The notes beneath the pieces were generated by a model that saw nothing but the letters and a program-made list of their open reading frames with translations, had not been told where the DNA came from and ran no database searches. Position numbers and translations under genes: made by a program. From Nitrososphaerota archaeon (GTDB lineage Archaea > Thermoproteota > EX4484-205 > JAAOZP01), in assembly GCA_011605725.1 (NCBI GenBank), contig JAAOZP010000017.1:32001-96000 (forward strand): a stretch of DNA of 64,000 nucleotides. The letters are read 5' to 3'. Below are positions 4,014-30,575 of the stretch, piece after piece. Position 1 is the stretch's first letter. The number at the start of each line of letters is the position of its first letter.

Positions 4014-5099
4014 ATGAGGATTGGGAGAGGCATAAGGGTTAAAAAGCTACTTGGAGAGGGTGTTTTGAGAATACTCAGGACAAGAAACCTTGTTGACAAG
4101 ACTCTCCGGATTAAAAGAAACGGGGATTTTCTAGTCATACCTCTCACCATGGAGGTTCAGAGGGAGGAGTTGAGAAAGCTGGGTGTTGAAGGGGATTTGG
4201 TGGTTGAAGGGTTTGAGGAAGCCACTAGTACGCCGAGCCTGTTTGAAAACCTTAGAAATGTTTTATCTGATGACGATTTAAAGATCGTGCCGCGATCGTA
4301 TGATGTGATTGGCGACGTCTGTATTCTTCAGCTTCCTAAGGAACTGTATGACCGTCGCAAGATAATTGGAGAAGTGTTTCTAAAAACCATGAAGAACATA
4401 AGAATGGTGCTTAACAAGACTGAACCTCTTTCTGGCGAGTATAGGGTTGGTGGATACGAGGTTTTAGCCGGCGAAGGAAGCATGGAAACAGTCTACCGGG
4501 AGCATGGTTGCATTTTTAAACTCGATATTTCAAAAGTCTTCTTCACACCGCGGCTCTCAGCCGAAAGAATAAGAGTGGCCTCACTAGTTAAACCTGGAGA
4601 AGTTGTCTGCGACCTTTTCGCTGGAATAGGGCCTTTCAGCATAATTATTGCGAAGAAAAACCCTAGCGTAAAGGTTCATGCTTGCGACATAAACCCATAC
4701 GCCTATAAATACCTTGTTGAAAACATAAGGTTGAACAGGGTTGAAGACAGGGTTAAGGCGTATCTTGGAGATGCTAGAGAACTGTCTGAGAAGAGTTTGA
4801 AAAACGTTGGTGACAGAATTATTATGAACCTACCGATGAGCTCTGAAATGTATCTTGATGCAGCTAAGAATGCGCTTAAAAAACGCGGGGGAATAGTGCA
4901 TCTTCACGTCTTCCTAGAGAAAGATACTGATCCTGATGAAAAATATGCAAGGATTTCAGAATCGTTCAGAAGGCTTGGCTGCGAAACCAAGCTCTTATCC
5001 TCAAGAAGAATAAGGGAGGTTGCTCCCTTTAAATACCATTGGGGTTTCGACATAGAGGTTAAACCGGAAAACGCTGAGTTACAGGCTTCCAGTTCCTAG
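4014..5099 (+). CDS. trm5: Trm5/Taw22-family tRNA (G37) methyltransferase
   Basis: SYDVIGD, REHGCIFKLD..KVFF.PRL..ER, DLFAGIGPF SAM motif, IIMNLP. Confidence 0.88.
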   Translation: MRIGRGIRVKKLLGEGVLRILRTRNLVDKTLRIKRNGDFLVIPLTMEVQREELRKLGVEGDLVVEGFEEATSTPSLFENLRNVLSDDDLKIVPRSYDVIGDVCILQLPKELYDRRKIIGEVFLKTMKNIRMVLNKTEPLSGEYRVGGYEVLAGEGSMETVYREHGCIFKLDISKVFFTPRLSAERIRVASLVKPGEVVCDLFAGIGPFSIIIAKKNPSVKVHACDINPYAYKYLVENIRLNRVEDRVKAYLGDARELSEKSLKNVGDRIIMNLPMSSEMYLDAAKNALKKRGGIVHLHVFLEKDTDPDEKYARISESFRRLGCETKLLSSRRIREVAPFKYHWGFDIEVKPENAELQASSS

Positions 5100-6172
5100 T
5101 TGGAAGCGGGTTCACCTGTCTGTATCAATAAAGATTTATTTAGGTCTATTTTGACAACAACTCTTCTTCCAACCATTCCAGATACCGCTTCATACTCGGA
5201 GGAATCATTCCCAGCGCATTCAATCACACCCTGGCTTGTTTTAACACGCGTAACTATTTTCCTACCTGCAAAAAGTGTGCTTAAAAGCTCTCCCTCCAAC
5301 AGGCCTTCACCCTCCAGGCTTATTGAAGCATCTTCAGGTCTGAATAGGAGAACCATTTTCCCGTCCACCTTAGACCCATGCCACCTCATCTTAAACTCGC
5401 CGCTTGGAAAGACAAGTCTGATGGTTTCCATGTCTAGGCGTTCAACCCTGGTTTCAAGCCTATTAACGAACCCTAGGAACCTCGCGGTTTTCTCCGTAGG
5501 GGGCTTCACGTACATCGTGTAAGCATCAGCATAAGAATCTATGACTCCGTCGAACATCGTGGCTATAAAGTCGCCCATGGCGAATGCTTCAAGCTGGTCG
5601 TGTGTAACATATATTGTTGTAATGCCCAGCTTCCTCTGAATCGTCCTTATTACGCTGGATATTTCTGCCCTTAGCCCAGCATCTAGAGCAGTAAGAGGTT
5701 CATCCAAGAGCAGTAGCCTAACTTCGAACGCTATCGCCCTCCCTATTGCCACCCTTTGCTGTTGCCCCCTGCTCAGCTCGTGGGGCCGCCTCTCTTCAAG
5801 CCCGGAGAGCTCAACTAGTTCCACAACCTCCTTAACCCGTCTACCGATTTCCTCTGGACTCCTTCCCCTGGCCTCTAATGGGAATGCAATGTTCTCCCTA
5901 ACATTGAGGTTTGGGAATAATGCTGGGCTTTGGAAAACCATCCCGACGTTTCTCTCTCTAGGGGGGAGACCAGTCACGTCTTTCCCGTCGAATAGAATTC
6001 TACCCGAATCAGGCTTAAGAAGCCCCGCGATTATTCTGAGCGTAGTAGTCTTACCGCATCCGCTGGGACCCAGAAGAGCAAGTGTTTTCCCAGGCGGGAT
6101 GCTGAAACTGACGCCCCTTAACGCTTCAAAGTTTCCAAACCTTTTCCTTAGATCCTGTGCTTCAAGCCTCAT
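5096..6172 (-). CDS. thiQ: Thiamine ABC transporter ATP-binding subunit (ThiQ-like)
   Basis: Walker A GPSGCGKT, signature LSRGQQQR, LLLDEP, VTHDQ; operonic with the thiB/thiP-like genes under a TPP riboswitch. Confidence 0.8.
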   Translation of the reverse strand: MRLEAQDLRKRFGNFEALRGVSFSIPPGKTLALLGPSGCGKTTTLRIIAGLLKPDSGRILFDGKDVTGLPPRERNVGMVFQSPALFPNLNVRENIAFPLEARGRSPEEIGRRVKEVVELVELSGLEERRPHELSRGQQQRVAIGRAIAFEVRLLLLDEPLTALDAGLRAEISSVIRTIQRKLGITTIYVTHDQLEAFAMGDFIATMFDGVIDSYADAYTMYVKPPTEKTARFLGFVNRLETRVERLDMETIRLVFPSGEFKMRWHGSKVDGKMVLLFRPEDASISLEGEGLLEGELLSTLFAGRKIVTRVKTSQGVIECAGNDSSEYEAVSGMVGRRVVVKIDLNKSLLIQTGEPASN

Positions 6173-7813
6173 TCAAATCATCCTCACTCTTTCTTTTGAA
6201 AATTGCGACCCGGCTGTTTCAACAATAATTACTATTGAAGTGAGGAGCGAGGTTAAGGCTAACGCCAGGTTAAGCCTTCTGTAATCTATAAGCAGGTTGA
6301 TGGCTACTGGGATCGTCATCAGGTTGAGCGTGCTGAAGAAGGTTGAGAACGTGAAGTCGCTTAAAGACGAGGAGAACGCCATTAGAAGCGTCGCTACCAC
6401 GGCGGGCAGTATGAGCGGTATTTCAACCCTTATAAGCCTGAAGACGACGGTTGCACCATGAGCATCAGCAGCTTCACGGTATTCTTTAACTATTCTGCTC
6501 CAGGATGCTTCGATAATTCTGGTTGCAAGCGGCACGACTACTGCTGACTGGCCTATCACCATGAGCATCCAGCTTCCATATAGCTTGACAATGCCAAAGC
6601 CGTAGGATAGAAGTATTCCGAGGGCAAGTGATGAGCGCGACATTGTTAATGGAAGAACCATAAGTATGCTTACGATTTTCTCTAAAACACCGCCGGCAAG
6701 CTTTGAAGACCAAACTATCGCAACGGAGAGCAGTGTTGAAAAAACTGAGACGATGAGCGCTATCGATAGGCTTTGAAGAAAAATCTCGCTGAGGCTGAGG
6801 CCGAAGCCGAATTTAAAATCGCAAAGCTCCCTGAAAAGCAGCGGCACGGAGTGTCCTGCCTCTAAAAACGGGCCTACAACCGGTATCACGATGGGCGTAA
6901 GCTCGAAAACGCAGATGAACACCACGTATGCAGCCAGAAGAATCCCGCTGAAGCTTGAAAAGAGCTTTGAAACAGGTTCCTCAACATGACGCTCCACTGA
7001 GGAGGGGGCATAGTATTTTTCCCTTAAAAAAATAATTATGATCGACAAGAACAGTGTTGACGATAGTTGAAGCAGAGCTATGGATGATGAGACTGGTTTA
7101 AACCTGGTGGCGTATATCTCGACCTCAAGTGTTGTAAACTTTCCTCCCACGAGCATTGGTGTGGAATATGTTATGAATGAGAATGCGAACACAAGTAGTG
7201 AGGCAGCAACCATGTGCGGCGTTAAAAAGTTTAAGTATACTGTTTTGAAGACTCGTAGAGTTGAGCCTGAGAAAACCCTGGCGGCATCTACAAGGTCTTG
7301 ATCAACAGAGGAAAAGCCCTGTTCAAGAATGAGGGTTGCTAACGGAACATAGTATATTACGTGCGCCAGTATCACAGCCCACATTGAATATAGGATTTTA
7401 ACAACCGGCTCGCCTGTTGCGAAAATTTGGGAAAGAAGAGAGTTGACGATTCCTTTTTCCCCAAGCAACACTATAAGGCCCTCTGCTACTGTGAAAGCAG
7501 GGACAAAGAACGGTGTAAGTAAAACATACTCTAGAATCCTCTTTCCTTTAAACGAATACTTAGCTAGGAAGAATGCTAATGGGAGAGATAGAAGCAGGGT
7601 AATCAGCGTTGAGAAGACGGCTTGCATAAGAGTCCCGTAGAACAGCCTATGAATATAGTCGTCAAGAAGGATATTTACAAGGTCCTTCTGGTTCACGTTG
7701 CCTATTAGAAAGGATAAGGGCATCATGTAGAAGAAGAGCAGGAATAAAAAGAAAGGCGTGAAGATTAGAAGCTTCCTGATGATGCTCATCCGGTTTTTAC
7801 CTCTCTCCTCCAC
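6173..7813 (-). CDS. thiP: Thiamine ABC transporter permease (ThiP-like, two fused permease domains)
   Basis: Two EAA-loop motifs (DAARVFSG, EAADAHGA) and about 12 TM segments; overlaps the upstream binding-protein gene. Confidence 0.8.
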   Translation of the reverse strand: MEERGKNRMSIIRKLLIFTPFFLFLLFFYMMPLSFLIGNVNQKDLVNILLDDYIHRLFYGTLMQAVFSTLITLLLSLPLAFFLAKYSFKGKRILEYVLLTPFFVPAFTVAEGLIVLLGEKGIVNSLLSQIFATGEPVVKILYSMWAVILAHVIYYVPLATLILEQGFSSVDQDLVDAARVFSGSTLRVFKTVYLNFLTPHMVAASLLVFAFSFITYSTPMLVGGKFTTLEVEIYATRFKPVSSSIALLQLSSTLFLSIIIIFLREKYYAPSSVERHVEEPVSKLFSSFSGILLAAYVVFICVFELTPIVIPVVGPFLEAGHSVPLLFRELCDFKFGFGLSLSEIFLQSLSIALIVSVFSTLLSVAIVWSSKLAGGVLEKIVSILMVLPLTMSRSSLALGILLSYGFGIVKLYGSWMLMVIGQSAVVVPLATRIIEASWSRIVKEYREAADAHGATVVFRLIRVEIPLILPAVVATLLMAFSSSLSDFTFSTFFSTLNLMTIPVAINLLIDYRRLNLALALTSLLTSIVIIVETAGSQFSKERVRMI

Positions 7814-8811
7814 TTTTCAAGCCACTGTTCAACGCTTCCCGCAATCTCAGCGTTGAAGGTTACTTTCTCTGAAGGTATTGGAGCGTAGCTAAACAATTCG
7901 ACGGAAGCCTTAGGGTTAACAGGATACATGTATCCTTCAGGTGCAATAAGGTTCTGCGCCTCAGTGCTTAAAACGAACTCTATGAACTTCTTAGCTATTT
8001 CAGGATGCTTAGCGTTCTTAACTAAAGCTATGCCTTCCCTGTAAACAAATCCCTCGACAGCCATGCTTGTAAGGTTAGGAGTCTCCTCGTAACCCACGTC
8101 AGTGTTAAACATGGGTCCAATAGCAACCTCACCTTTTTTCAAAGCCATTATAGAGGAGGTCCAGCCTGAAGGATGAGTCTTAACATTATGCTCAAGCTGT
8201 TTTAGGAAGCTGAATCCTTCTTCAACACCTTTAACGGATAAAACCCATACTAAGAATGATAAGCCTGTTCCGCTTGAAGTCGGATCCTGGTAGAATACTA
8301 GGCCCTTATACTCTGGTCTAAGCAGGTCGTCAAGCCTCTCAGGCGGTGGAAGGCCTAGTCTGGCGAGGATACTGCTGTTGTATGTTATTATAACGTAGCC
8401 TTTATCCATAGGTATAACCGTGCCAGTATGATCCCATATTTCATCCACCGGTATCAGTGAAATATTCTGAGGCCTATACGGCTCTAAAACACCTGCATCT
8501 ATCAAGGTTTTCGCATAAAATTCAGGAATACCCATTATTACATCAGCCACTGGAGAATCTTTTTCAAGGATGAGCTTGTTAGCTATCTCGATTGAACCCA
8601 TGCCGTAGCTTATGAAAGTCACGTTCACGTTAGGATACCTGTTTTTAAACTCTCTCACAAAAGCCGTTGCGAGTCCTGATATTCCCCTAGGCCCGTAAAT
8701 TATCAACGTGTCTTCAAGCCTAGGCTGACTGAGTTGAAGATACAGTATTGAAGACACTATGGCTAGCACTGCAGCTGCCGAAGCCAGCATTATTCTCCAG
8801 CCTATTCTCAT
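7786..8811 (-). CDS. thiB: Thiamine ABC transporter substrate-binding protein (ThiB/TbpA-like)
   Basis: N-terminal anchor; LILEKDSPVADV, QDPTSSGTGLSFL, YMYPVN typical of ThiB/AfuA-type binding proteins; TPP riboswitch upstream; SD GGAGGTG at 8824-8818. Confidence 0.85.
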   Translation of the reverse strand: MRIGWRIMLASAAAVLAIVSSILYLQLSQPRLEDTLIIYGPRGISGLATAFVREFKNRYPNVNVTFISYGMGSIEIANKLILEKDSPVADVIMGIPEFYAKTLIDAGVLEPYRPQNISLIPVDEIWDHTGTVIPMDKGYVIITYNSSILARLGLPPPERLDDLLRPEYKGLVFYQDPTSSGTGLSFLVWVLSVKGVEEGFSFLKQLEHNVKTHPSGWTSSIMALKKGEVAIGPMFNTDVGYEETPNLTSMAVEGFVYREGIALVKNAKHPEIAKKFIEFVLSTEAQNLIAPEGYMYPVNPKASVELFSYAPIPSEKVTFNAEIAGSVEQWLEKWRREVKTG

Positions 8812-8856
8812 TTATCCCACCTCCTTTCATACTGGGCGGTAGAAGAAGGAGCGTCG

Positions 8857-8955
8857 GGTAGCTTCCCTACGCCGGTATTATCCGGATCAGGTTAATAGGG
8901 GTCGACCCCCATGCAGGGTCCTCTCAGCCGGGCTTCCCCAGCTCCCCCAGCTACC
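8857..8955 (-). ncRNA. TPP (thi-box) riboswitch aptamer
   Basis: Minus strand reads GGUAGCU-GGGGGA-GCUGGG-GAAG-CCCGGC-UGAGA-G-GACCC-UGCAUGG-GGGUC-GACCCC-UAUUA-ACCUGAU-CCGG-AUAAUA-CCGG-CGUAGGGA-AGCUACC. It contains GCUGAGA, ACCUGAUC, UAAU and GCG.AGGGA, with intact P1-P5 pairings. Confidence 0.95.
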
Positions 8956-8983
8956 GCCGTTAAGCTCCCTTATGAAACAATCG

Positions 8984-8992
8984 CTTTATAAG
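8984..8992 (-). promoter_or_regulatory. Probable TATA box of the riboswitch/thiBPQ transcript
   Basis: CTTATAAAG on the minus strand, about 26-30 nt upstream of the GGCGGUAG leader and aptamer start. Confidence 0.6.
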
Positions 8993-9065
8993 TATTACTC
9001 CTGCTGTTCCGTCAGCGTTTGGAAAAATATATAATGTTTACGTGTTACAAACAGGTTCTCAAGGA

Positions 9066-9875
9066 ATGACCAAGATAAACTATCACATTCACAGCACGTA
9101 TAGTGATGGACGGGCCTCAATACTGGAGTATGTTGAGGAAGCAGCTAGAAAGGGGTTTAACGAGATCGCCTTTACTGAACACTTAGCAATACGGCCAGGA
9201 TCAATGAAAAAACTGTATTACTCTATAGATGTCTCCAAGATAGATGATTATGTTAAAGAGGTTAGAGAGGCTGAGAAAAGTTTAAAGGGCTTAAAGGTGA
9301 AGGCGGGTTTAGAGGTCGACTACTTTCCAGGCTCAGAATCATTGCTTAAAGACATCTTAGGAAGCAACGATTTGGATTTCACCATGGTGAGCATCCATTG
9401 GATAGGCGAGTTTTGTCTAGACTGTGTAAAGTATAAGAAGGCTTTTCAAATCGCGGTTAGAGAAGAGGGTTTCGACAAATTCTACTCGAAGTATCTGAAG
9501 CTTCTTGGAGAAGCAGTGGAATCAGGATTGTTCAACGTTATTGCGCACTTCGATATAGCTAGAAACTGGGGTTTCAAAACCTCTAATGATTTTAAGATGG
9601 ATGAGCTCATGATCCTGGAAAAAGCAAGTAGCCTGGGAATGGTTGTTGAGGTTTCCAGCAAGGGGTTGAGAAACCCTGTTAACGAGCCGTATCCGACTCG
9701 GAAGATTCTAGAATACTGTAGCTCCATCAAAATACCGATTACACTTGGTACTGATGCCCATAGGCTGAGCGAGATCGACTCAAACTATGATTCTATAGTT
9801 GAGTATGCTAAGACTGCTGGTTACTCAGAGTTAGCCACGTTCGACAGGAGGAAGCTGACTCTCGCTCCTTTTTAA
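9066..9875 (+). CDS. PHP-family phosphatase, HisJ/HisK histidinol-phosphatase-like
   Basis: YHIHSTYSDG, FTEH, GLEVDY, SIHW, AHFD, GTDAH. ATG at 9066 preferred over GTG 9042. Confidence 0.85.
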   Translation: MTKINYHIHSTYSDGRASILEYVEEAARKGFNEIAFTEHLAIRPGSMKKLYYSIDVSKIDDYVKEVREAEKSLKGLKVKAGLEVDYFPGSESLLKDILGSNDLDFTMVSIHWIGEFCLDCVKYKKAFQIAVREEGFDKFYSKYLKLLGEAVESGLFNVIAHFDIARNWGFKTSNDFKMDELMILEKASSLGMVVEVSSKGLRNPVNEPYPTRKILEYCSSIKIPITLGTDAHRLSEIDSNYDSIVEYAKTAGYSELATFDRRKLTLAPF

Positions 9876-28651: not shown

Positions 28652-29310
28652 ACTCCACCGTTCTCCTCAGATCTTTTCGAAAGAATCTCGACCCAAGGAT
28701 TGTCTTTCAAGAAGGAAGGGAGTTCTCCAGCCTTCGTCTGCTCCTTAGGGGGAAAGGTTTTTCGAACAGGCTCTTCAACAGCCATTGTTTTACCCTCCAA
28801 TGTCCTCCTTAGATCCCTGACTTCCCTCAGCAACGAGAAGTATGCTTTTTCAAGAGAGTCGACTCTTTCAGAGAGCTCTCTTATCATCGACTCTATCCTC
28901 ATAAGGCTTCTCTCCAGAGACTGGGTTTCAACAGGTTTCTGAACCTGCCTGATTAGATCCTTCTTAAGCCTGTTCTCCGCCGGAAGCCTCTCCTCCACGC
29001 TGTAATCATCGTACAAGATTAATCCAACACCCTTCTTCAGGAAGGAAGCCGTCTCCACATCCTCCCCAAGGATTCTAGGGGCAGCAACGTAAACCATGCT
29101 GTACTCATCGGCTTTTTCGATCACCGAGGCTAGAGCCTCATAGAGAATAATCCTGTCCGCCTCCTCCTCGAAAAGTATTTTAACCAAGACTTCCTGCCTG
29201 CCGTTTGAGAAAACAAGTTCACTATTCTCCTCAGCATACTCTATAGTCTGGAAACCGTTTTTGGAAAAGTATTTCTCAACCCTCTGCACAACCCTTTTGG
29301 AGAAGCTCAT
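28648..29310 (-). CDS. Arcadin-2-like crenactin-binding protein
   Basis: Translationally coupled to crenactin (ATGA overlap at 29307-29310). C-terminal LPSFLKDNPWVEILSKR resembles the crenactin-binding C-terminal helix of Pyrobaculum arcadin-2 (N.WV.IL..R). Central coiled coil. Confidence 0.8.
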   Translation of the reverse strand: MSFSKRVVQRVEKYFSKNGFQTIEYAEENSELVFSNGRQEVLVKILFEEEADRIILYEALASVIEKADEYSMVYVAAPRILGEDVETASFLKKGVGLILYDDYSVEERLPAENRLKKDLIRQVQKPVETQSLERSLMRIESMIRELSERVDSLEKAYFSLLREVRDLRRTLEGKTMAVEEPVRKTFPPKEQTKAGELPSFLKDNPWVEILSKRSEENGGV

Positions 29311-30575
29311 CTGAACTTCATCCATCCCTCCATTCTTTCCCAGCTCCACCTGAAACCCTCTGGAACAGCATAGCCGTAAACTATGCATCCCCTCCAAACC
29401 GAATACTTGGGAGAACTCGCCATCACGACCCCTGCTTCCGAAACTCCTTTCTCACCGAGCATAATCTTAATCTTGTCAACCGAATTTACACAGGCGTCTT
29501 CAAGACCTGGAGGAACCTTCCATTCAAAGTTTCCGCCGGACAGTATTATCTGCCTGTACAAGTATGGTTGAAGCTCAACCGGGCATTTCTCAATCGACTG
29601 AACTATTGCCTCAGCCATGTCAACCATACCTAGGAAAAAAGTGTCTCCAACCTTAACATCCCCAGGCCTAGGCATCCCCCTTGCAAAATAGCTTTGAAAA
29701 ACCTCGTGATTAGGGTTAAAAACATACTCGCCTATGAGGAACCTGAGCCAACCGTTATCCTCAAGCGTGATCCTCAGCCTGGTTCCAGGTATGTTTATCA
29801 CTGATGCAAGCTTATCAGGGTTCTCCTTTCCAAACCGGATTGCCTCCTCCAGCCTTCTCGGCACCAAGCCAACCTGCTCCTTCACCTGTCTGACAACAGT
29901 CTCCTCCTTAGCAAGATCACCGTATCCACTGTCCTTCAATATCTCTGCCGTTATTGAGTTAGCATCTCCACCACCCCTGTTTAAAGCTATGATTGCAGTT
30001 CTGACGGGATATCTCGAGATCGGGGTTATCTGCGTATTGCCGTGGCCGGATTCTACGACAACACTCGTCGGAACCTTATGGGATATTGCAACCGCCAGGG
30101 GCTGCGGGATTATCGTGGCTGCCGCAACATTATGCTCCTCCGAATCTATTCTCCTGTAGATGTCGAACAGTTTTTCATACATGTATCTCGGCGCGACTGC
30201 TGACAGGGATGCTACAACGTAAAAACCGTTGAAGCCCTCCTCCTTAGGAGTGAATTCTCTCAACGCCATTCGGGAAACCTCTTCGACAACCTGCCAAGCT
30301 CTAGTGTCATTCTTATCTATCACACCGTTTCTGAAAGGATAGACGAGTCTTGACGCCAAGTCTTCCCTTGCCTCCAGGTAGAGCGGGATATCCTTGCCGA
30401 CTACAACCTCCTTACCCTCACCCATTATCCTAGTCATTATCGCATCCTTATCCGGAAAATACCCTCTGTTCTCCGTCAGCTCCGGTGTTTCCCCAAGCGA
30501 GATCGGGCCATACTTGAAGAAACTAGTACCATAATCCATTCCCATTACGTGTGAACGCTTATACGCCTCGGACAA
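29307..30575 (-). CDS. Crenactin (archaeal actin)
   Basis: DYGTSFFKYGPI, IIPQPLAVAI, VESGHGNTQITPIS, ALNRGG, GLVPRRL, RFLIGEYVFNPNHE, IILSGG, YSVWRG..YGYA.P...W....EGW all match crenactin. Confidence 0.96.
   Translation of the reverse strand: MSEAYKRSHVMGMDYGTSFFKYGPISLGETPELTENRGYFPDKDAIMTRIMGEGKEVVVGKDIPLYLEAREDLASRLVYPFRNGVIDKNDTRAWQVVEEVSRMALREFTPKEEGFNGFYVVASLSAVAPRYMYEKLFDIYRRIDSEEHNVAAATIIPQPLAVAISHKVPTSVVVESGHGNTQITPISRYPVRTAIIALNRGGGDANSITAEILKDSGYGDLAKEETVVRQVKEQVGLVPRRLEEAIRFGKENPDKLASVINIPGTRLRITLEDNGWLRFLIGEYVFNPNHEVFQSYFARGMPRPGDVKVGDTFFLGMVDMAEAIVQSIEKCPVELQPYLYRQIILSGGNFEWKVPPGLEDACVNSVDKIKIMLGEKGVSEAGVVMASSPKYSVWRGCIVYGYAVPEGFRWSWERMEGWMKFR

Follow-up and report, generated by a model that had tools for sequence, protein, structure and literature searches.

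Background and overview

In Escherichia coli, the thiamine importer operon thiBPQ (tbpA–thiPQ) is itself under the control of a thiamine pyrophosphate (TPP) riboswitch. In many archaea, thiamine genes are repressed by ThiR, a protein with a ThiN domain. Here, we describe a TPP riboswitch aptamer and its predicted expression platform on the minus strand of a 64-kb stretch of contig JAAOZP010000017.1, which belongs to an archaeon of the Brockarchaeota; "the window" denotes this whole stretch. The aptamer lies upstream of genes for a binding protein, a fused double permease, and an ATPase of the ATP-binding cassette (ABC) type, an arrangement like that of E. coli thiBPQ. The likeness holds at the subfamily level, and the ATPase is longer here (358 amino acids). 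ThiR has the same regulatory task, but it is a protein rather than an RNA, and the ThiN domain that a ThiR-type regulator needs (PF10120) was not found in this genome assembly, which is 93% complete.

The E. coli thiM riboswitch is a translational OFF switch, in which formation of helix P1 frees an anti-Shine–Dalgarno (anti-SD) sequence to mask the Shine–Dalgarno (SD) sequence (PMC2018614). The present element shares the aptamer family with thiM and, by prediction, the logic of SD, anti-SD, and anti-anti-SD segments with P1 as the deciding helix. In thiM, the anti-anti-SD lies within the 3′ strand of P1 and forms a local hairpin (P8*), whereas the predicted one of the present RNA is made up of the leader together with the P1 and P2 5′ strands, at the very start of the transcript. 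The predicted ligand-free helix is accordingly a long-range one, with the whole aptamer inside it. Further differences from thiM are the presence of two anti-SD tracts and an archaeal host that lives at about 60 °C.

Archaeal TPP riboswitches have been known from sequence since 2002 as the THI elements of Thermoplasmatales (Rodionov 2002, cited in PMC5473149). Those elements also precede thiamine transport or synthesis genes and are known from sequence alone; the present element comes from another phylum, the Thermoproteota, and within it from the Brockarchaeota of the TACK (Thaumarchaeota, Aigarchaeota, Crenarchaeota, and Korarchaeota) group. Over all riboswitch classes, the tally of McCown 2017 was 79 for Euryarchaeota, 6 for Crenarchaeota, 1 for Korarchaeota, and 1 for Thaumarchaeota (PMC5473149). 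The sole natural archaeal riboswitch that had been tested experimentally by 2021 was the fluoride riboswitch of Thermococcus (PMC8241225). The riboswitch of Thermococcus kodakarensis is likewise a natural riboswitch of a thermophilic archaeon, but its ligand and aptamer differ. In the literature searched, we found no experimentally tested archaeal TPP riboswitch and no paper on riboswitches of Brockarchaeota or Bathyarchaeota. The device described below is of a known kind, in a lineage where little of it has been documented.

The TPP aptamer and its predicted promoter

The window was searched with cmscan against Rfam 15, in which the gathering score of RF00059 (TPP) is 54.3 bits. RF00059 matched positions 8958–8847 (−) with 72.0 bits (E 3.2e-12) over model positions 1–105, and this was the single Rfam match across the window. 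It is also the sole TPP match in the 2.23-Mb, 20-contig genome (E 2.7e-14 per genome). The match is far beyond chance. All upper-case consensus positions of RF00059 are matched in the cmscan alignment, and the ligand-contact motifs (the GGGG.GC box, CUGAGA, ACCC, and ACCUGAU...UAAU...GCG.AGGGA) are intact. P1 is formed by GGUAGCU (8955–8949) and AGCUACC (8863–8857), which give the 5 bp of the Rfam model and two further G–C pairs. An earlier reading of the window, made from the letters and hereafter called the sequence-only reading, had placed a full TPP aptamer on this strand 45 nucleotides (nt) before thiB. The covariance-model search bears this out with a significant full-length match, and the AUG lies 45 nt past the end of P1.

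The aptamer structure appears to be under selection. Among 29 archaeal aptamers of the phylum, compensatory double changes occur in 10 of the 19 RNAalifold consensus pairs. Within the genus, 93% of the aptamer cells are paired, versus 29–55% after the partners were slid, and P5 shows a swap from G–C to A–U. The RNA probably binds TPP, and we consider it a genuine TPP-sensing switch ahead of a thiamine-type ABC importer.

A putative promoter is recognizable by comparison of the eight genus sequences, in which TTTATAA(A/G) is invariant and is preceded by a purine-rich stretch resembling a transcription factor B recognition element (BRE). The spacer between the TATA box and GGCGG, 22–26 nt in length, varies freely. 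Near-invariant sequence starts at GGCGG and runs to the SD, and its few variable sites coincide with predicted loops. Because of the usual archaeal distance from the TATA box to the start, and because conservation sets in at this point, transcription is predicted to start at about A8961/A8960. The sequence-only reading had likewise put a TATA box at about 8991–8985 and the start just before the leader; TTATAAA is found there, and the box and its spacing are conserved.

Predicted folds of the expression platform

The motifs on which the sequence-only reading built its platform, CUCCUU (8851–8846), AAGGAG (8826–8821), CUACCGCC (8842–8835), and the leader GGCGGUAG (8958–8951), are all in place. 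The exact complementarity claimed for CUACCGCC and GGCGGUAG was also confirmed, and this alternative pairing exists. The coordinates of all elements are listed in Table 1.

The unconstrained minimum free energy (MFE) structure (−63.8 kcal/mol at 37 °C and −35.8 kcal/mol at 60 °C) is a long helix and not the aptamer fold. In one part of this helix, GGCGGUAG (8958–8951) pairs with CUACCGCC (8842–8835), and in the other, GGGGGAGC (8948–8941) pairs with GCUCCUUC (8852–8845). A 2 × 2 loop (8950–8949/8844–8843) separates the two parts, so that 8958–8941 and 8852–8835 form 16 bp in total. The helix is present in the unconstrained MFE structure at 37–60 °C, which leaves all seven SD bases unpaired (0/7 paired). 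The sequence-only reading had proposed a ligand-free helix between the leader and CUACCGCC. That pairing is retained in the prediction, but the helix has 16 bp rather than 8, and it disrupts P2 as well, not P1 alone.

When the aptamer was enforced, the SD was masked. The best fold then had −57.3 kcal/mol at 37 °C and −31.6 kcal/mol at 60 °C, lying 6.5 and 4.2 kcal/mol above the MFE, respectively. Given typical TPP aptamer affinities, we judge these gaps to be within reach of the ligand binding energy. The SD is 0.9–0.99 paired in the aptamer-enforced ensemble, and 0.68–0.86 paired in all eight genus relatives. Its dominant partner is the downstream tract, with UUCUACC.CC (8844–8835) facing GG.GGUGGGA (8824–8815) at 0.6–0.83 per pair, and the SD-masking hairpin with this tract is predicted in all eight genus relatives (8/8). 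The leader GGCGGUAG resembles the SD GGAGGUGG. CUACCGCC is thus predicted to be the main anti-SD and the leader its decoy. In the sequence-only reading, CUACCGCC had been a separate anti-sequestor; this assignment is replaced by one in which the masking pairing competes directly with the leader.

Folding of the growing transcript indicated that P1 survives up to a 3′ end at 8842 (37 °C) or 8838 (60 °C), at which point the RNA flips to the 16-bp helix. TPP would therefore have about 15–20 nt of synthesis in which to lock the aptamer.

The SD itself is well placed. Its GGAGG starts at −13 and so falls in the −16 to −12 region, in which SD sequences peak across the genome; SD 5-mers are found there in 21.7% of long ORFs (open reading frames) versus 9.4% in a control window. 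These figures support SD-dependent initiation in the host; the fit of the SD does not settle the energetics of the switch.

Proposed mechanism

We propose that the TPP riboswitch at the mRNA 5′ end of this thiamine-type ABC importer operon functions as a translational OFF switch, and we put the probability of this reading at about 0.7. Transcription would start approximately 3 nt before GGCGG, and the aptamer would be the first element to fold. When TPP is bound, P1 (8955–8949/8863–8857) and P2 would be locked, and the pyrimidine tract 8852–8835 would be left free. The freed tract would pair with the SD AGGAGGUG, chiefly through UUCUACC.CC and GG.GGUGGGA with CUCCUU/AAGGAG as a minor pairing, and would keep the 30S subunit off the mRNA. 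When TPP is scarce, the 5′ 18 nt (8958–8941) would capture 8852–8835 once it is transcribed, with nucleation at the unpaired 5′ GGC. This 16-bp capture helix would break P1 and P2 and occupy both anti-SD tracts, and the SD and the AUG would be open. The OFF state with TPP and the ON state without it, as put forward in the sequence-only reading, remain the best account in outline; the wiring between them is corrected here on the basis of the predicted folds.

Two lines of evidence, the conservation pattern of the platform and the predicted coupling between P1 and the ribosome-binding site (RBS), support a switch. No change is seen in the 5′ 18 nt among the eight genus sequences or among metagenome relatives with 75–82% ThiB identity, and leader and platform are identical even in metagenome relatives down to 75% ThiB identity. 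Platform changes are confined to 8843 (internal loop), 8833–8828 (hairpin loop), 8855/8853 (linker), and 8817. The first of these, within the 2 × 2 internal loop, is the only variable position of the second anti-SD tract. The survey of related thiB leaders, which the sequence-only reading had called for, thus found leader and platform invariant in the genus and the aptamer tied to thiB. The coupling was evaluated at 60 °C as the probability that the RBS (−17 to +3) is unpaired with and without P1 enforced, in comparison with 60 dinucleotide shuffles of the platform. With P1 present, the unpaired probability of the RBS fell to 0.55 from the 0.85 seen in its absence. This drop of 0.30 was reached by 2 of the 60 shuffles, which gave 0.05 ± 0.09. 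Four genus-type leaders gave couplings of 0.26–0.36, reached by 0–2 of 60 shuffles. Leaders from the sister family have an unrelated platform sequence, and five of the eight gave 0.23–0.48 (again 0–2 of 60 shuffles). The anti-SD of the sister-family leaders overlaps a segment that is complementary to the aptamer GCAAGGGGUGC box. According to these predictions, it is the switch logic, not the sequence, that is common to the genus and sister-family leaders.

Several results weigh against the proposed mechanism. The energy of the 16-bp helix is only marginally unusual, as 94 of 2000 dinucleotide shuffles attained it, and so did 64 of 3000 random 30-mers drawn from the genome. The SD pairing energy was attained in 950 of 2000 shuffles and is not unusual, because the tract is pyrimidine-rich. 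A pyrimidine-rich tract facing a G-rich aptamer makes raw complementarity weak evidence, and it was not used as evidence for the platform. There is no covariation signal in the platform helices; 16 of 16 pairs in the ligand-free helix and 6 of 9 in the masking hairpin never vary, and covariation is therefore uninformative for them. Three of the eight sister-family leaders showed coupling no greater than that of the shuffles. With P1 alone enforced, the two states are 0–2 kcal/mol apart, and even when P1 is formed the RBS remains unpaired with a probability of 0.55 at 60 °C. The unconstrained MFE structure at 37 °C already has P1 and a masked SD in five of the eight genus relatives. Because the states are nearly isoenergetic and the masked structure is the MFE in these five relatives, the switch may be kinetic or only partial.

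The alternative that survives best keeps the translational output and uses the wiring of the sequence-only reading. There, CUCCUU (8851–8846) and AAGGAG (8826–8821) form the mask, and CUACCGCC lies in the loop, with no other role than that of an anti-sequestor, to be bound by the leader in the absence of TPP. CUCCUU and AAGGAG are invariant in all relatives, their pairing is preserved in relatives with A instead of G at 8817, in which the other hairpin is shorter, and CUCCUU also takes part in the ligand-free helix. The platform can mask the SD, as the reading had it. However, with the aptamer enforced, the pair probability of CUCCUU/AAGGAG is about 0.05–0.08, versus about 0.8 for the CUACC register of UUCUACC.CC, and the hairpin would consist of 6 bp closing a 19-nt loop. 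In addition, leader capture and SD masking would share no bases in this wiring. The two could coexist as a pseudoknot with connecting loops of 3 nt and 8 nt (spacing by eye), and exclusivity would not be inherent. We consider this wiring unlikely.

An improbable alternative is that the aptamer is functional with an output other than SD masking, such that TPP alters transcript stability or factor-dependent premature termination, for example by making the 5′ end accessible. In the ligand-free helix, the 5′ terminus predicted for the transcript is indeed base-paired, and nearly isoenergetic states argue against a simple thermodynamic SD switch. The leader, though, has no oligo-U tract, and no nuclease or termination signal is indicated by the sequence. 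Moreover, a perfect 8-nt SD adjoins two conserved anti-SD tracts, and the coupling exceeds that of the shuffles. A platform for transcription termination was also considered and rejected; U residues occur in the leader in runs of at most two, and there is hence no archaeal oligo-U terminator. Finally, a decayed aptamer copy does occur in one genus member (G008), but it is very improbable that the present aptamer is an inherited or transferred relic without regulation, with the platform kept as a promoter-proximal or translation-enhancing sequence, given that all ligand-contact motifs are intact, compensatory changes are present, and the aptamer strictly co-occurs with thiB and is decayed exactly where thiB is missing.

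The translational OFF switch proposed above is of wider interest, as it would offer a clean and testable model of how riboswitches control translation in archaea. The leader is compact (~150 nt), with a perfect SD, mutually exclusive predicted pairings, and relatives with different platforms, and it is a practical candidate for a first biochemical test. It could also provide a thiamine-controlled expression tool for moderate thermophiles.

Table 1. Features of the riboswitch and importer locus (window coordinates)
Feature	Position	Strand	Remarks
Predicted archaeal promoter	8985..9000	−	BRE-like purine-rich stretch 9000–8993, TATA box TTATAAA 8991–8985; from reading of the sequence
Predicted transcription start, ~A8961/A8960	8958..8962	−	T/A initiator, 26–27 nt from TATA center; inferred
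TPP riboswitch aptamer RF00059	8847..8958	−	CUGAGA pyrimidine-sensor motif 8926–8921; ACCUGAUCCGGAUAAUACCGGCGUAGGGA pyrophosphate-sensor arm present
5′ 18 nt, GGCGGUAG-CU-GGGGGAGC	8941..8958	−	5′ strands of P1 and P2; alternatively the predicted anti-anti-SD pairing with the platform
Platform tract 1, GCUCCUUC	8845..8852	−	Includes CUCCUU; predicted partner GGGGGAGC 8948–8941 in ligand-free state, minor SD partner in bound state; invariant in relatives
Platform tract 2, UUCUACCGCC	8835..8844	−	Resembles 16S 3′ end; predicted main anti-SD, alternatively pairs with leader GGCGGUAG
Loop of predicted SD-masking hairpin	8825..8834	−	8833–8828 variable among relatives, as expected of unpaired bases
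SD sequence, AGGAGGUG	8818..8825	−	Perfect 8-nt complement of the 16S 3′ end of the same genome; invariant in relatives
AUG start codon of ThiB-like gene	8809..8811	−	N-terminus MRIGWR kept in relatives
ThiB-like solute-binding protein, 341 aa	7786..8811	−	TIGR01254 match
Fused double permease, 546 aa, ThiP/PhnU2-like	6173..7813	−	Two BPD_transp_1 stretches
ABC ATPase	5096..6172	−	ABC_tran domain

Host and thiamine physiology

The contig is archaeal. The window contains a crenactin gene (29307–30575, −) whose product matches Protein Data Bank (PDB) chains 4cj7/4bql, both labeled "actin/actin family protein," with E 1e-113; we take these chains to be crenactin of Pyrobaculum calidifontis. The genome has an archaeal 16S rRNA (1450 bits, 62.1% GC) with the 3′ end ...GGAUCACCUCCU. 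The binding protein is 83–92% identical to proteins of metagenome-assembled genomes (MAGs) named Candidatus Brockarchaeota or Thermoproteota, and the locus is present in at least eight independent archaeal MAGs. Crenactin, 16S rRNA, and the closest MAG relatives point to Brockarchaeota, in agreement with the TACK host of the sequence-only reading. A bacterial contig, which that reading had named as grounds for giving up its claim, or contamination is excluded by crenactin in the window, the adjoining Trm5b-type methyltransferase gene, and the archaeal MAGs that carry the locus. Brockarchaeota members with genomes of 2.1–2.3 Mb and 47% GC come from springs at 60–63 °C (PMC8065059). Thiamine and riboswitches are unmentioned in that paper (PMC8065059).

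The host is probably a thiamine auxotroph. No ThiC, ThiE (TMP-TENI), ThiN, or thiamine pyrophosphokinase was detected in the genome, which is 93% complete. For Thi4, there was no convincing match in the genome; short matches to the first ~60 model positions lie inside much longer ORFs and most likely represent a shared nucleotide-binding segment. ThiL is present (C20:3707-4645), with a score of 188.7 bits that is barely over the cut-off. Because the genome appears unable to make thiamine, the importer is probably its sole supply, and the riboswitch is the only recognizable thiamine regulator in the genome. Brockarchaeota with this genome would then rely on vitamin B1 from their neighbors, with the switch governing the importer. 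A route from imported thiamine to TPP would require thiamine monophosphate (TMP) or TPP as the imported form, or an unrecognized kinase.

Distribution in relatives and in the phylum

The order was sampled with 26 genomes, 17 of which belong to the genus; the class contains just this order. The full aptamer is present in 8 of the 17 genus genomes, including the source genome, and thiB is found in exactly those eight. Eight of the remaining genus genomes have neither, and one, G008, has a decayed aptamer without thiB. The decayed copy (G008:C2:88498-91601, ~1501–1604 of that stretch) scores 44.6 bits, under the threshold, and has a deletion in P2/P3. Part of the platform remains without an SD, and thiB was not found in the G008 genome. 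This copy has the appearance of a relic that outlasted the importer.

In the low-GC genus of the sister family (g5; DRTY-1.bins.18, L052 1440–1503, and genomes G021, G022, and G024), no TPP aptamer was detected even at E ≤ 1. Its thiB product is 62–63% identical, and the gene has a TATA box about 30 nt from the ATG and a short promoter-proximal leader. As thiB occurs without the aptamer there, the riboswitch was gained or lost within the order.

A TPP aptamer is found in 31 of the 151 sampled genomes of the phylum. The frequency is 8/15 in the Ca. Methanosuratincola family and 6/6 in one Bathyarchaeia family, and no TPP aptamer was found in several large families of the phylum sample (0/20 and 0/13). 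In view of these counts, the rarity of archaeal riboswitches is overstated in the sequence-only reading, and its statement that TPP aptamers are reported mainly from Thermoplasmatales is too narrow. The phylum aptamers precede ThiW, ThiT, ThiC, or ThiB-like genes, and association with thiamine genes is seen in Spirochaetes too.

The sequence-only reading had raised a bacterial origin of ThiB, to be tested by phylogeny. All ThiB relatives with at least 54% identity are archaeal, and the nearest bacterial ones are 26–33% identical on branches of at least 1 change per site. In the ThiB tree, Brockarchaeota and Bathyarchaeia group closely, and the bacterial homologues sit on very long branches. 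Sampling for this unrooted tree was limited by pattern, one alphaproteobacterial group is misplaced by long-branch attraction, and neither donor nor direction is assignable. Within these limits there is no sign of recent transfer from bacteria, and a recent bacterial origin of thiB is unsupported.

A bolder picture, which we regard as unlikely, can be drawn. In it, TPP riboswitches would be old and common in the TACK classes outside classical Thermoproteia (Brockarchaeia, Bathyarchaeia, and Methanomethylicia). The Brockarchaeal form would be 5′-anchored. Its first 18 nt would serve two anti-SD tracts as a decoy that is driven by a toehold, and TPP would govern access for ribosomes as well as how exposed the 5′ end is to decay. 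If this were true, the 5′-anchored form would be a distinct archaeal platform design and not a copy of the bacterial thiM type.

Leaders elsewhere in the phylum differ from that of the importer. In many ThiT/ThiW leaders (L027, L029, L032, L037, L039, and L040), the start codon follows the aptamer AGGGA by 4–8 nt in an A-rich context without an SD; of these six, just L029 (G138) is assigned to the Bathyarchaeia family. P1 is weak or absent in such close-start leaders, with five mismatches in L037. From this layout, it must be the aptamer itself that occludes the initiation site. The Bathyarchaeia ThiC leaders L005 (1650–1670) and L026 contain U-rich tracts such as UUUUUCUUGAUUUU between the aptamer and the start codon. 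These tracts resemble archaeal oligo-U termination signals, and some archaeal TPP riboswitches of the phylum may act on transcription rather than translation.

Importer operon and neighboring genes

The permease and ATPase genes are adjacent to the binding-protein gene on the same strand and form one operon with it. The binding protein scored 143 bits against TIGR01254 (thiamine ABC binding-protein subfamily; cut-off 93.4) and 80.9 bits against the equivalog TIGR01276, under its cut-off of 317. Its PDB relatives are P5PA, which binds pyridoxal 5′-phosphate (PLP), an iron(III)-binding protein, and E. coli TbpA (2qry, E 3e-22). The ThiP and PhnU2 models align along the full length of the permease with scores under their cut-offs, and the ATPase scored under the cut-offs of PhnT2, PotA, and ThiQ. 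The thiBPQ operon of the sequence-only reading therefore holds as a ThiB-like protein, permease, and ATPase operon behind the aptamer, but the equivalog models of ThiB, ThiP, and ThiQ were not reached. We use the label "ThiB-like" on the basis of family membership and the riboswitch. The ligands of the PDB relatives are PLP, iron, and thiamine, and the imported substrate could be thiamine, TMP, TPP, or a precursor.

An out-of-frame AUG (8830–8828, −) is located in the hairpin loop, shortly before the SD. Two relatives, G003 and G007, lack it; a role as an upstream ORF was dropped on this ground, and the AUG is probably meaningless. The operon is flanked by a gene for a Trm5b/Taw22-type tRNA methyltransferase. 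A divergent gene for a PHP-domain phosphatase of the HisJ family (window 9042–9875, +) shares the intergenic region with the riboswitch promoter. This divergent arrangement is not found in G010 or in the sister family and is retained in six genus relatives.

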